A model generated the notes under the pieces. The model searched no databases and was not told where the DNA came from. It saw nothing but the letters and a program-made list of their open reading frames with translations. Positions 21,973-25,342 of a DNA stretch of 64,000 bases are shown in pieces. Source of the stretch: Candidatus Eiseniibacteriota bacterium (GTDB lineage Bacteria > Eisenbacteria > RBG-16-71-46 > CAIMUX01 > VGJL01). The position numbers and the translations under genes were made by a program. Within the stretch, counting starts at the first letter, position 1. Each line of letters begins with the position of its first letter. The stretch lies in assembly GCA_041946735.1 (NCBI GenBank), contig JBHGAY010000004.1, positions 5,425-69,424 on the forward strand, in the 5' to 3' direction.

Positions 21973-23967
21973 ATGGCGATCTTGCAGAGCGTTCCATCGA
22001 TCGACTACCAGGAGCTCGGCTTGAAGGCCGGGCTCGAGGTCCACCAGCAGCTCCTGACCGACACGAAGATGTTCTGCCACTGCCCCGCCGGCCGCTACAC
22101 GGAGACCCACGATGGGGAAGTGCTGCGGCACATGCGTCCCACGCTTTCCGAGCTGGGGGAGTACGACGGGACGGCGCTCATGGAGTTCCGGACCAAGAAG
22201 AACATCATCTACCTGCTGCACAAGGAAAACGTCTGCACTTACGAAATGGACGACACGCCCCCCTTCCTGGTCAATCAGGAAGCGATCGACATCGCGATCG
22301 AGCAGTGTTTGATGCTGGGGTGCGACATCGTCGACGAGGTGCACATCGCGCGCAAGCAGTACCTCGACGGATCGATCCCGACCGGCTTCCAGCGCACGGC
22401 GATCGTGGGCGTCAACGGCAGGCTTCCGTTTCGCGGCCGCGAGATCTCGATCACGCAGGTCAGCGTCGAGGAGGATTCGTGCCGGGAGGTCTCGGACCGC
22501 GGGCACCTGATCGTCTGGCGGACGGACCGGCTCGGCATGCCGCTCATCGAGACGGTGACAGGTCCCGACCTGCGCACTCCCGAGGAGGTCGAGGAGGCGA
22601 TCCTGCTGATCGGGCGCGTGTGCCGGAGCACCGGGCACGTGCGGGTCGGGATCGGCGCGAGCCGGCAGGACGTCAATGTCTCGGTGCGCGGCGGGCGGCG
22701 GGTGGAAATCAAGGGGGTGCCGCAGGCGCATTGGGCGAGGCGTCTCGTCCACGGCGAAGCGATCCGCCAATGGAACCTGCTGCGGCTGCGAGACGATCTG
22801 CGCCGGCGCGGCTTCGAGAAGCCGGCAGATCTCCGCATCGACGGCTTCAACGTCACCGACGTCTTCGCGGCGAGCGCGCTGCAGCAGCTGCGGGCCGAAT
22901 CGTGGGAGCGCTGGGTGGCGACGACCGGCCGGCGGGTGGGCTTCGAGTTGCGGCCGGGACCGTTCTGCGTGCGCGCCATCCTCTTGAAGGGCCTCGCCGG
23001 CGCGCTGAGCTGGCCGACGCAGCCGGACTTGACGTTCGCCGCCGAGCTGGCGGGACGCGTGCGGGTGATCGCCGGGCTCGATCAGGCGCCGATCCTCTAT
23101 CACGACGAGAAGTGGCCGGACTACGAGGGCTCGGTCGCCGAGTTGCGGCGGGTTCGCAACCGCCTTCGCTGCGATCCCGGCGATGCGATCGTCGTCGTCT
23201 GGGGGTCCGAAGAGGACACGATCACGGCGATGGAGGAGATCCGCACCCGCTTCGCCGACGCGCTCGACGGCGTCCCGAACGAGACGCGGCAGCCGTTCCA
23301 GGATGGGCGGACCGATTTCGAGCGCATCCTTCCGGGACCCGACCGGATGTATCCGGATACCGACAGCCCTCCGTCGCTCGTCACGCGCGAGCGCGTCGAG
23401 CGGTTGCGCCGCGATCTCGCGCCGCGCCCGTGGGAGCGGGAGGCGCGCTACGCGGCGGCCGGGGTGCCGCTCCCCACGATCCACTACCTGATCCGCCGCA
23501 ACGGCGCCGCTCTCGTCGACCGCGTCGCGGAATCGTGCGGGGCCGACCTGCGACATGCCTGCTTCTTCTTCGGCGAGCGGCTGAAGGGACTCCGCAGGGC
23601 GGGGATCGCGGTCCGTTCGATCCCCGAGGAGCGATGGTGCGAGCTGTTCCGAGCGATCGCGGAGCGGCCGATCTTGCGCGAAGCCTGGGAAGTCCTCGTG
23701 CGGAAGATGGCGAGCGCGCCGCCGGCCAGTGTCGCGGAGATCCTCGCGACCGAGGGGCTCGGCGCGGCGCCGGCGCGCTGGCGGGAGATCGTGGACAGAC
23801 AGATCGACGCGGCTCGGAGAGATCTCTACGAAGAGGATCCCGGCCGGCTGCGGCGTCTTGCGATGGGAAGGTGCATGGCGGTCCTTCGCGGGAAGGTGCC
23901 CGCGAAGGAGGTGGCGGCGGCGCTGGACGAGAGCCTCGCGGCGAGGAGCGTGCATGGCCGGGGATGA
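21973..23967 (+). CDS. gatE: Glutamyl-tRNA(Gln) amidotransferase subunit E (archaeal-type GatE)
   Basis: ATG 21973 with [49 protein letters not shown] matches the GatE N-terminus (M..DY.KLGLK.GLEIHQQL.T..KLFC.CP). It is about 664 aa, longer than GatB, and is followed by an asparaginase-like partner. Confidence 0.8.
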   Translation: [664 protein letters not shown]

Positions 23968-25342
23968 CCTGAAGGGATACAAGGGGCGGGCGCGGGCGAA
24001 GCTGGCCGAGCTGGGCGTACGCGTCTGGAGCGACGTGCGCCTGCGCAACGACGCGGGGAGCGTGTTCGAGGGGGTGATCCTGCCGCGGAGCGAGACGCTC
24101 GACGACGCGCATGTCGTGATCAAGATGAAGAACGGCTACAACGTCGGCGTGCACATCGACCGGATCGCGGAGGTGCAGGAGGTCGGCTACAAGGAAGCGG
24201 TCTACAAGATCCCCGAGAAGGAATTCCCGCGGCGCCCCGACCTGCCGTCGGTCACGCTGCTCGGAACCGGCGGGACGATCGCCTCTCGCCTGGACTACCG
24301 GACCGGAGCGGTCATCCCCGCCTTCACGCCGGGCGAGTTGTACGGCGCCGTTCCGGAGCTGGCGGACATCTGCAATCTCACGACGAAGAAGATCTTCGGC
24401 GTCTTCTCCGAGAACATGTCGAAGGATCAGTACATCGAGCTGGCGCAAGCGATCGGCGCGGAGATCGAGGGGGGAGCCGACGGGATCGTAATCGGCCATG
24501 GCACCGACACGATGGGGCACACCGCCGCGATTCTCTCCTTCATGGTGCAGAACTCCCCGGTGCCGATCGTCCTGGTCGGATCGCAGCGCTCGAGCGACCG
24601 CCCGTCGAGTGACGCCGCGCTGAACCTGATCCATTCCGTCCGGTCGGCGGCATACGGCGAAATCGCCGAGGTCGTCATCTGCATGTTCGGGCCGACCTCC
24701 GACCGCTACGGGCTGCTTCATCGCGGGACGCGATGCCGCAAGATGCACAGCTCCTACCGCAGCACGTTCCGGACGGTGGGAGACACTCCGCTCGCGACGG
24801 TGAGCCGCGACGAGTTTTCCTACCTGACGGCAGACTTCCGCCGGCGGGACCGTTCGCGGAAGGTCGTCGTCGATCCGGTCTACGACGACCGGGCCACGAT
24901 CCTCTACTACTACCCGGGTATGCGTCCGGATCTCGTCGATGCGCTCGTCGAGAAGGGGTATCGCGGGATCGTGATAGCCGGGACCGGCCTCGGCCACGTG
25001 AACAAGCCGCTCTACCCGGCGTTGAAGCGCGCGGTCGCCGCGGGCGTGCATATCGTCATGACCGTGCAAACGCTCTGGGGATATGCGCAGATGTATGTCT
25101 ACGACACGGGGCGCGACCTGATCGACATCGGCGTCGTGCCGCTCGACAACATGCTCCCCGAGACCGCGCTGATGAAGCTCTCCTGGGTGCTCGCTCACAC
25201 GGACGACCACGACGAGGTGATGCGAATGATGCGTCGCTCCATCAGCCACGAGATCACCTCGCGGGAGCCGCACAACGGGTACCTGATCCTTCAGGGAGGG
25301 CTGCCCGACACCGAGGAGTTCATCGCTTCGCACTGGAAGTAG
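23954..25342 (+). CDS. gatD: Glutamyl-tRNA(Gln) amidotransferase subunit D (GatD, L-asparaginase-like)
   Basis: ATG 23954 overlaps the gatE end by 14 nt. The asparaginase catalytic motif LLGTGGTIAS and HGTDTM are present, with a GatD-type N-terminal extension (KGYKGRARAKLAELGVRVWSDVRLRNDAG...). Confidence 0.8.
   Translation: MAGDDLKGYKGRARAKLAELGVRVWSDVRLRNDAGSVFEGVILPRSETLDDAHVVIKMKNGYNVGVHIDRIAEVQEVGYKEAVYKIPEKEFPRRPDLPSVTLLGTGGTIASRLDYRTGAVIPAFTPGELYGAVPELADICNLTTKKIFGVFSENMSKDQYIELAQAIGAEIEGGADGIVIGHGTDTMGHTAAILSFMVQNSPVPIVLVGSQRSSDRPSSDAALNLIHSVRSAAYGEIAEVVICMFGPTSDRYGLLHRGTRCRKMHSSYRSTFRTVGDTPLATVSRDEFSYLTADFRRRDRSRKVVVDPVYDDRATILYYYPGMRPDLVDALVEKGYRGIVIAGTGLGHVNKPLYPALKRAVAAGVHIVMTVQTLWGYAQMYVYDTGRDLIDIGVVPLDNMLPETALMKLSWVLAHTDDHDEVMRMMRRSISHEITSREPHNGYLILQGGLPDTEEFIASHWK

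Follow-up and report, generated by a model that had tools for sequence, protein, structure and literature searches.

An archaeal-type GatDE gene pair in an Eisenbacteria genome, probably a Glu-tRNA(Gln) amidotransferase of ancient archaeal origin

An Overlapping gatE–gatD Operon

We analyzed a 64,000-nt stretch of DNA from a Candidatus Eiseniibacteriota bacterium (GCA_041946735.1, contig JBHGAY010000004.1, positions 5,425–69,424 of the forward strand), referred to as the window; all gatE and gatD coordinates are counted in window positions. At 68% GC throughout, the window carries two overlapping forward-strand genes: gatE (21973–23967), for a tRNA-dependent kinase/amidotransferase subunit of 664 aa read from ATG 21973, and gatD (23954–25342), for an asparaginase-fold glutaminase subunit of 462 aa read from ATG 23954. 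GatDE is thus present as an intact two-gene operon in an Eisenbacteria genome. The window's GatE is 100% identical to P0001, an NCBI product named GatE on a 214-kb contig of a Candidatus Eisenbacteria metagenome-assembled genome (MAG).

The preliminary description of this DNA had taken the first gene for GatE rather than GatB, and equivalog hidden Markov models (HMMs), solved-structure matches, and a predicted fold bear this out. GatE scored 485 bits against NF003107 (cut-off 456; model positions 3–625 of 630 covered) and 429 bits against TIGR00134 (cut-off 319.55), whereas all GatB models failed, the best at 141 bits against a cut-off of 338. Full-length matches were obtained to the GatE chains of Pyrococcus abyssi (1zq1_C; E 1e-93, residues 9–650) and Methanothermobacter thermautotrophicus (2d6f_C; E 7e-83), the insertion domain included. 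An AF2 model built on a 59-sequence alignment (mean predicted local distance difference test score 88, predicted template-modeling score 0.85) retrieved the GatE chains 1zq1_C and 2d6f as the best Foldseek matches (E 1e-46 to 1e-43; template-modeling score 0.78–0.81, normalized to the target). Below them ranked GatB chains (E 1e-24 and weaker) and then the bacterial AspRS chains 1eqr_A and 1c0a_A (E ~5e-3), the latter as expected because GatE carries an AspRS-like insertion.

That insertion, a GAD-type domain at approximately residues 285–430 (22825–23262, +; boundaries approximate), aligns to the corresponding insertion of 1zq1_C and 2d6f_C and is well folded in the AF2 model; Pfam GAD (PF02938) is recorded for several GatE relatives of the same clade. 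The C-terminal YqeY-like tail domain (residues 530–655; 23560–23937, +) aligns to the tails of the same two structures, with the Pfam GatB_Yqey model reaching 26.1 bits, just below its 27-bit cut-off. In M. thermautotrophicus GatE, His15, Glu157, and Glu184 bind Mg2+ at the kinase site, and mutating any of them abolishes both the kinase and the transamidase activities (PMC2330236). The aligned residues H24, E166, and E193 of the window's protein are invariant in the 59 homologues and in all labeled sequences.

We also considered the first gene as a GatB with a long insertion and rejected this assignment: the GatB score falls far short of its cut-off, the AspRS-like insertion is present, the tail is of GatE type, and the first-base-pair loop has a GatE-like length.

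The second gene is GatD with its N-domain, as also first described. It scored 500.2 bits against NF003217 (cut-off 310) and 499.7 bits against TIGR02153 (cut-off 324), and matched the GatD chains 1zq1_A (E 1e-118, aligned from residue 9) and 2d6f_A (E 3e-117, aligned from residue 2). Pfam places GatD_N (PF18195; 51.8 bits, cut-off 25.7) at residues 28–75, Asparaginase at 100–291, and Asparaginase_C at 315–426. The protein contains LLGTGGTIAS and carries the Thr nucleophile and the Thr–Asp–Lys triad motifs of the asparaginase active site; TGGTIAS (105–111), HGTDTM (182–187), and RKMH (262–265) are 96–100% conserved across the 73 bacterial loci on which our motif and junction counts rest. As its fold predicts, GatD also scores above the cut-off of TIGR00519, a subfamily model for type I asparaginases (359 bits; cut-off 260). 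A stand-alone type I L-asparaginase (~330 aa) was nevertheless rejected, given the length of 462 aa, the GatD_N domain, the higher scores against the GatD equivalogs, and the probable translational coupling to gatE.

The junction reads as initially reported: the two open reading frames (ORFs) overlap by 14 nt, from the gatD ATG at 23954 to the gatE TGA at 23965–23967. A Shine-Dalgarno-like GAGGAG (23943–23948, +), read from the sequence, lies inside the gatE 3' end, 5 nt before the gatD start, and we infer translational coupling of the two genes. The gatE start itself is possibly ATG 21973 or TTG 21982. The purine-rich GAGAGGAG at 21965–21972 directly precedes ATG 21973; TTG 21982 is better spaced relative to the GGAG at 21969–21972 and gives a 661-aa protein, and since NCBI's product is 661 aa long, its start was placed there. 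Upstream, the intergenic region at 21805–21972 is shared with a divergent quinone-oxidoreductase-like gene (20713–21804, −) and presumably holds the gatE promoter (+). A scan for sigma-70 promoters and terminators around the operon returned nothing above shuffled expectation, with no sigma-70 consensus match in 21805–21972.

Comparison of gatE and gatD with six relatives gave dN/dS values of 0.05–0.29; by this sequence measure, both genes are under purifying selection.

Comparison with Archaeal GatDE and Bacterial GatCAB

The window's pair has the same two subunits and the same domain plan as archaeal GatDE from M. thermautotrophicus (2D6F) and P. abyssi (1ZQ1). GatE shares with its archaeal counterparts the cradle, the AspRS-like insertion, the helical domain, the YqeY-like tail, and the His/Glu/Glu Mg2+ site, and its loop at the position of bacterial GatB's 3-10 turn has a GatE-like short length; GatD shares the N-domain, the two asparaginase domains, and the Thr/Thr–Asp–Lys motifs. 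Relative to these structures, GatE is clearly the less conserved subunit in both HMMER and Foldseek, with 32–33% identity in the Foldseek alignment. The pair differs from archaeal GatDE in its bacterial host, in a loop reading HVRVG rather than KVKRG and a tail reading RGKVPAKEV rather than RGKADGK, in a likely tRNA(Gln) substrate with U1–A72 rather than A1–U72, and in the joining of the bacterial genes as an overlapping gatE-then-gatD operon.

The enzyme expected in bacteria for this reaction is GatCAB (Staphylococcus aureus, 3IP4; Thermus thermophilus, 3KFU), whose GatB subunit, a GatE paralogue, shares the cradle fold, Mg2+ site, and phosphorylation-then-amidation chemistry of GatE (PMC2330236). 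Unlike the window's GatE, GatB has no AspRS-like insertion, carries a Lys-rich KxGKxK tail, and has a loop two residues longer that forms a 3-10 turn reading U1–A72 (PMC2811023). GatB is partnered by the amidase-family GatA and by GatC, whereas the partner gene of the window's gatE encodes the asparaginase-fold GatD.

Bacterial Surroundings and Related Loci

Efflux genes of bacterial type (AcrB, HlyD, and the TolC-type OEP) flank gatDE in the window, as does a sigma-54 activator with a Fis-type helix-turn-helix. Elsewhere in the window lie genes for citramalate synthase, an ABC sugar transporter, an M24 peptidase, two dehydrogenases, a Ser/Thr kinase, MoaA, a molybdopterin oxidoreductase/cytochrome cluster, and an Rrf2 regulator. 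The typically bacterial neighborhood described at the outset was therefore recovered, with the RND/TolC efflux genes, the sigma-54 activator, and an ABC transporter identified. The GC content and third-position GC content (GC3, 0.89–0.90) of gatE and gatD equal those of their neighbors, with no compositional anomaly.

The operon recurs widely. Scanning GTDB species representatives for close GatE yielded at least 169 matching genomes, in which GatE is 67–85% and GatD 76–94% identical to the window's proteins; 80 loci were retrieved, and the locus comparisons cover 81 related loci (1.3 Mb). Depositors label the close loci as Acidobacteriota (Vicinamibacteria, Thermoanaerobaculia, Holophagales), Eisenbacteria, Myxococcota, Gemmatimonadota, Planctomycetota, Methylomirabilota, Fermentibacteria, and Riflebacteria, and many lie on contigs of 0.5–3.2 Mb, long-read contigs included. 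In every related locus with room, gatE is followed by gatD on the same strand. Among these loci, gatE and gatD most often overlap by 4 nt (40 of 73 loci); the 14-nt overlap, shared by a few loci, is specific to the window's lineage.

All-against-all ORF clustering of the 81 loci found no conserved neighbors beyond gatE, gatD, and antisense shadow ORFs, the sole recurrent neighbor of gatE being an upstream GGDEF/GAF protein in 11 of the 81. At some loci, the operon adjoins RNA genes. In two Acidobacteriota loci, L020 and L024 (on contigs of 175 kb and 2.5 Mb), a complete bacterial 16S–tRNAIle–tRNAAla–23S–5S operon ends 120–345 nt upstream of gatE (L020, 4745–9880; L024, 4493–9656), with signal recognition particle RNA and two tRNA-Ser genes downstream. 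In two Deltaproteobacteria-labeled MAGs, a divergent tRNA-Gln(CUG) gene lies ~130 nt upstream of gatE (L047, 9801–9872, −; L061, 5660–5731, −); both tRNAs are of bacterial type, with U1–A72 as the first base pair. L025 has a tRNA-Asn(GUU) gene upstream of gatE. Scans for tRNA and Rfam families in the window and in L081 and L090–L095 found nothing.

Among 72,556 PLSDB plasmid records, no bacterial GatE was found. The only plasmid match is archaeal, on Natrinema thermotolerans CP031304.1 (706092–707959; L086), in two BLAST pieces with no listed gene. PLSDB lists no pseudogenes; this copy may be frameshifted or a pseudogene, because its uninterrupted frame yields no GatE N terminus, and it was left out of the trees.

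These contexts bear on whether the contig could itself be archaeal, chimeric, or mis-binned, joining an archaeal gatDE fragment to bacterial DNA. Its source is a MAG, and reviews from 2008 to 2022 describe GatDE as an archaeal signature protein, exclusive to archaea (PMC2330236, PMC8762117, PMC2811023), both of which speak for this reading. It is, however, scarcely credible and we excluded it: GC and GC3 stay uniform from the flanks through the two genes, the 64 kb hold bacterial-type genes on either side of the pair, at least 169 species representatives carry this operon, the long-read contigs described above included, it directly follows a complete bacterial rRNA operon in L020 and L024, and more divergent members of the family adjoin genes for a TolC-type protein, a hybrid histidine kinase, and a Mur ligase.

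Phylogeny and Origin of Bacterial GatDE

To place these sequences more widely, we used a profile-free search of 1.8 billion cluster representatives, which gave 648 matches at E<1e-30. A neighbor-joining (NJ) tree on simple distances split GatE into two groups. Group I comprises the window's tight clade (100% bootstrap) and ~40 representatives of 50%-identity clusters at 41–51% identity to the window's protein. Its labels are Eisenbacteria, Acidobacteriota (including Aminicenantes), Deltaproteobacteria/Desulfaltia, Bradymonadales, CSSED10-310, KSB1, Krumholzibacteria, Calditrichaeota, Ignavibacteriae, Planctomycetes, Zixibacteria, WOR-3, and Spirochaetes. Group II, at 30–38% identity to the window's GatE, carries the labels Heimdallarchaeota, Thorarchaeota, Thermoprotei, and Thermoplasmatota. 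Divergent Group I loci have bacterial contexts—a TolC-type OEP with a membrane fusion protein (MFP) and an ABC transporter, a hybrid histidine kinase on a 2.9-Mb contig, and a Mur ligase—and gatD directly follows gatE in all those examined.

All bacteria-labeled GatE sequences fall in Group I, which has 84–88% bootstrap support in NJ trees rooted with four bacterial GatB sequences from PLSDB records. Group I is not purely bacterial, a possibility we rejected on finding six sequences labeled Thermoplasmata or Thermoplasmatota inside it; the bacterial copies of GatDE form a single clade together with a subset of archaeal-labeled sequences. By label, the nearest nonbacterial relatives of the window's protein are the Thermoplasmatota-labeled P0424 (on CP070751.1), P0467, and P0499, Group I proteins to which the window's GatE is 45–46% identical, and the Heimdallarchaeota P0280. 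The GatB-rooted tree has its root among archaeal sequences, with P0280 as the nearest neighbor outside Group I under weak support. GatD mirrors GatE: the window's protein is 65–66% identical to those of Thermoplasmatota-labeled Group I members, 49% to Heimdallarchaeota, and 43% to Thorarchaeota.

The preliminary description had set the gatE-then-gatD order apart from the common archaeal gatD–gatE order, yet it does not as such depart from archaea. A Thorarchaeota contig shows gatE then gatD with a 2-nt gap, so the bacterial order is no new invention; on Heimdallarchaeota- and Thermoplasmatota-labeled contigs, gatD and gatE are adjacent but divergent. On CP070751.1, the divergent Group I gatD and gatE have glnA (glutamine synthetase) between them.

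Two loci of this clade deserve separate mention. CP070751.1 (L094, 3717581–3739518) is a 5.16-Mb chromosome labeled "Thermoplasmata archaeon," very large for that group. L090 (ENA ERZ24794647 NODE_384, 153.7 kb), which encodes the basal clade member P0275, carries its genes in the order gatE, gatD, overlapping by 4 nt as they do in bacteria, among neighbors that look archaeal: archease, a PAS-DUF835 protein, and four-subunit 2-oxoacid:ferredoxin oxidoreductases. The best GatE relatives of P0275 are a mix of Thermoplasmata-labeled and bacterial sequences at 40–50% identity.

Read together, the rough trees and the patchy distribution make an old archaea-to-bacteria transfer followed by spread the most likely history. 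A gatE–gatD pair from an archaeal lineage would have entered bacteria long ago and then spread over many bacterial phyla, the archaeal relatives relevant to its origin being the Thermoplasmatota-labeled members of Group I and the Heimdallarchaeota-like neighbor just outside the clade. The latest wave of this spread probably gave rise to the window's tight subclade (Eisenbacteria, Acidobacteriota, Myxococcota, Gemmatimonadota, and others); judged by general expectations for housekeeping proteins, the subclade's high identity across phyla suggests that this wave was comparatively recent. Of the inter-domain transfer initially suggested, the link to archaeal GatDE is real, whereas a peculiarity of one genome or a recent event fits neither an old, multiphylum clade nor the lack of a compositional anomaly in the two genes.

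The same trees can be asked whether bacterial GatDE is instead a vertically inherited relic of the age of LUCA, the last universal common ancestor, with Thermoplasmatota-labeled members as secondary recipients and no archaea-to-bacteria transfer. Sheppard and Soll inferred GatDE in LUCA, according to a citing passage of PMC9499178; the ~40 clusters of the bacterial clade attest to its depth and diversity, and midpoint rooting separates Group I cleanly from the bulk of archaeal GatE. We nonetheless hold such descent to be unlikely, as the GatB outgroup roots the tree among archaea and sets the bacterial clade beside Heimdallarchaeota- and Thermoplasmatota-labeled sequences (32–37% support), the distribution over bacterial phyla is patchy, and a cross-phylum GatD identity of 76–94% is, as a matter of general knowledge, high for vertical inheritance.

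Proposed Function and tRNA(Gln) Recognition

We estimate a probability of about three in four that gatE–gatD encodes a functional heteromeric Glu-tRNA(Gln) amidotransferase in an Eisenbacteria bacterium and was acquired anciently from archaea. In the proposed scheme, a nondiscriminating glutamyl-tRNA synthetase (GluRS) would charge tRNA(Gln) with glutamate. GatE would bind the acceptor arm and the D-loop of this tRNA and phosphorylate the γ-carboxyl with ATP/Mg2+ at H24/E166/E193; GatD would hydrolyze Gln or Asn via its Thr nucleophile and Thr–Asp–Lys triad, and the ammonia would pass through an intersubunit tunnel to GatE, giving Gln-tRNA(Gln). The substrate would be a bacterial-type tRNA(Gln) with U1–A72. 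The operon is chromosomal and probably translationally coupled.

Substrate recognition is where the bacterial proteins depart from what is established for archaea. Archaeal GatDE positively recognizes A1–U72 of tRNA(Gln) (PMC2330236, PMC9499178). Recognition of A1–U72 as such would be inapplicable here, because the gatE-adjacent tRNA-Gln genes of L047 and L061 have U1–A72. At the position of the GatB 3-10 turn, the window's GatE has a loop of GatE-like length, two residues shorter than in four GatB sequences. This first-base-pair loop reads KVKRG in archaea (Group II), KVRRG in archaeal-labeled Group I members (with some KVKRG among the Thermoplasmatota-labeled and Heimdallarchaeota set), KVRTG in many bacteria, and HVRVG in the window's clade. 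The archaeal loop is rich in positive residues, whereas that of the window's clade keeps one Arg only, and as a hypothesis the change from KVKRG to HVRVG may mean that the first base pair is recognized in a re-tuned or relaxed manner. The tail, with which the archaeal enzyme binds the tRNA D-loop, has the motif RGKVPAKEV in the window's GatE, compared with RGK(V/A)DGK in archaea and KGKANP in GatB.

We searched the window and the 81 related loci by tblastn with Escherichia coli GlnRS, GluRS, and AsnRS and four bacterial GatA/GatB sequences as queries. No gatA, gatB, glnS, gltX, or asnS was found in this 1.3 Mb (gatC was not queried), and the only GatB-type matches were gatE itself. An amidase gene 2–5 kb from gatE in L052, L053, and L071 was examined as a candidate gatA and rejected (220 bits against a cut-off of 481).

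Differences in loop and tail from the archaeal consensus invite the question of whether bacterial GatDE was recruited to another job, such as amidation of Asp-tRNA(Asn), service of a special isoacceptor, a stress- or nitrogen-regulated back-up of GatCAB, or tRNA-dependent secondary metabolism. Bacteria normally have GatCAB and/or GlnRS, which leaves the need for GatDE unclear, and the tRNA-Asn gene upstream of gatE in L025 points in the same direction. Such a role is nonetheless distinctly improbable. The AspRS-like insertion is kept, and modeling of the archaeal enzyme suggests a steric clash between this insertion and nondiscriminating AspRS (PMC2330236). Conservation is very strong, with low dN/dS; conserved biosynthetic-cluster neighbors are absent from the 81 loci, where only the GGDEF/GAF protein recurs; the operon lies beside tRNA-Gln or an rRNA operon at some loci; and no PLSDB plasmid carries a bacterial copy.

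Several points weigh against the amidotransferase assignment and its archaeal origin. It is from homology that we infer an α2β2 Glu-tRNA(Gln) amidotransferase making Gln-tRNA(Gln). The physiological need for GatDE is unproven, and the status of GatCAB, GlnRS, and nondiscriminating GluRS in the host genomes bears on it. Bacterial tRNA(Gln) has U1–A72 where the archaeal tRNA has A1–U72, which implies a change of specificity or else a different substrate. The host phyla of the relatives are those of the depositors' MAG labels, and the archaeal identity of the Thermoplasmatota-labeled contigs is likewise a label, the sole hint being a geranylgeranyl-reductase-like neighbor in L096. Finally, we name a donor and a direction of transfer only tentatively, because the NJ trees use simple distances and backbone nodes outside Group I have 32–37% support.

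A broader proposal extends the assignment beyond the window: a large, old bacterial GatDE lineage would be the amidotransferase by which many phyla form Gln-tRNA(Gln)—Eisenbacteria and other lineages of the FCB group, Acidobacteriota, Myxococcota, Planctomycetota, Zixibacteria, and more—working on U1–A72 tRNA(Gln) with a re-tuned loop and either taking over the Glu-AdT role of GatCAB or dividing the work with it. In the sharing variant, GatDE would serve Gln and GatCAB Asn, as in archaea. We put this proposal at slightly less than even odds.

Significance

A full-text literature search found no description of GatDE in bacteria, whereas the NCBI and JGI pipelines routinely name GatE and GatD in bacterial MAGs. 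The family and its annotated members are thus known, and what appears to be unreported is the presence of GatDE in bacteria, and on this scale. The belief that GatDE is exclusive to archaea underlies arguments about why archaea never acquired GlnRS, about the co-evolution of GatDE with A1–U72 tRNA(Gln), and about GatDE in LUCA, and the finding would surprise specialists in aminoacyl-tRNA synthesis.

A bacterial clade in hundreds of genomes makes several matters testable: the action of GatDE on U1–A72 tRNA(Gln), the residues that set first-base-pair specificity, the retention of GatCAB for asparagine alone in GatDE bacteria, and inter-domain transfer with its direction. If the many-phyla proposal is true, GatDE would lose its standing as an "archaeal signature protein," and the clade would supply natural material for studying the co-evolution of amidotransferases with tRNA identity and the age of GatDE relative to the archaea–bacteria split. 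Wherever GatDE is taken as a marker of archaea in reconstructing metabolic and translation pathways from MAGs, these bacteria will be misjudged.

Other Features of the Window

A forward-strand gene at 2729–3721 encodes a 330-aa GTPase with MMR_HSR1 and TGS domains that matches no NCBIfam equivalog. Because its best solved-structure matches are yeast Rbg2, Rbg1, and the TGS domain of human DRG1 (E 2.5e-27 to 2e-10), the product is, by sequence comparison, a ribosome-interacting GTPase of DRG/Rbg type. This family is mainly known from archaea and eukaryotes, and the gene is a second translation-linked gene of archaeal/eukaryotic type in this bacterial window.

A long same-strand cluster at 27462–40350 (−) encodes MoaA, a NarJ-like chaperone, an EB_dh-family heme subunit, a 4Fe-4S subunit, a 998-aa molybdopterin oxidoreductase, a multiheme/c-type cytochrome, cytochrome b, a Rieske protein, an NAD(P)-linked FeS flavoprotein, and an Rrf2 regulator; its make-up resembles that of a respiratory molybdoenzyme linked to a bc-type module. 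An FlgD_ig-type domain forms the C-terminal end of three large proteins that are probably secreted (41059–42444, −; 42773–46210, −; 57380–60016, +): one is PNGase-F-like, one has a beta-helix/PMP repeat, and one is without another domain. This common module may serve for sorting or anchoring. At 1503–2660 (+), a beta-CASP/metallo-beta-lactamase-type protein with no Pfam match at 1e-5 resembles the ligase-associated DNA-damage-response exonuclease TIGR04122, scoring 201 bits, below the 325-bit cut-off.

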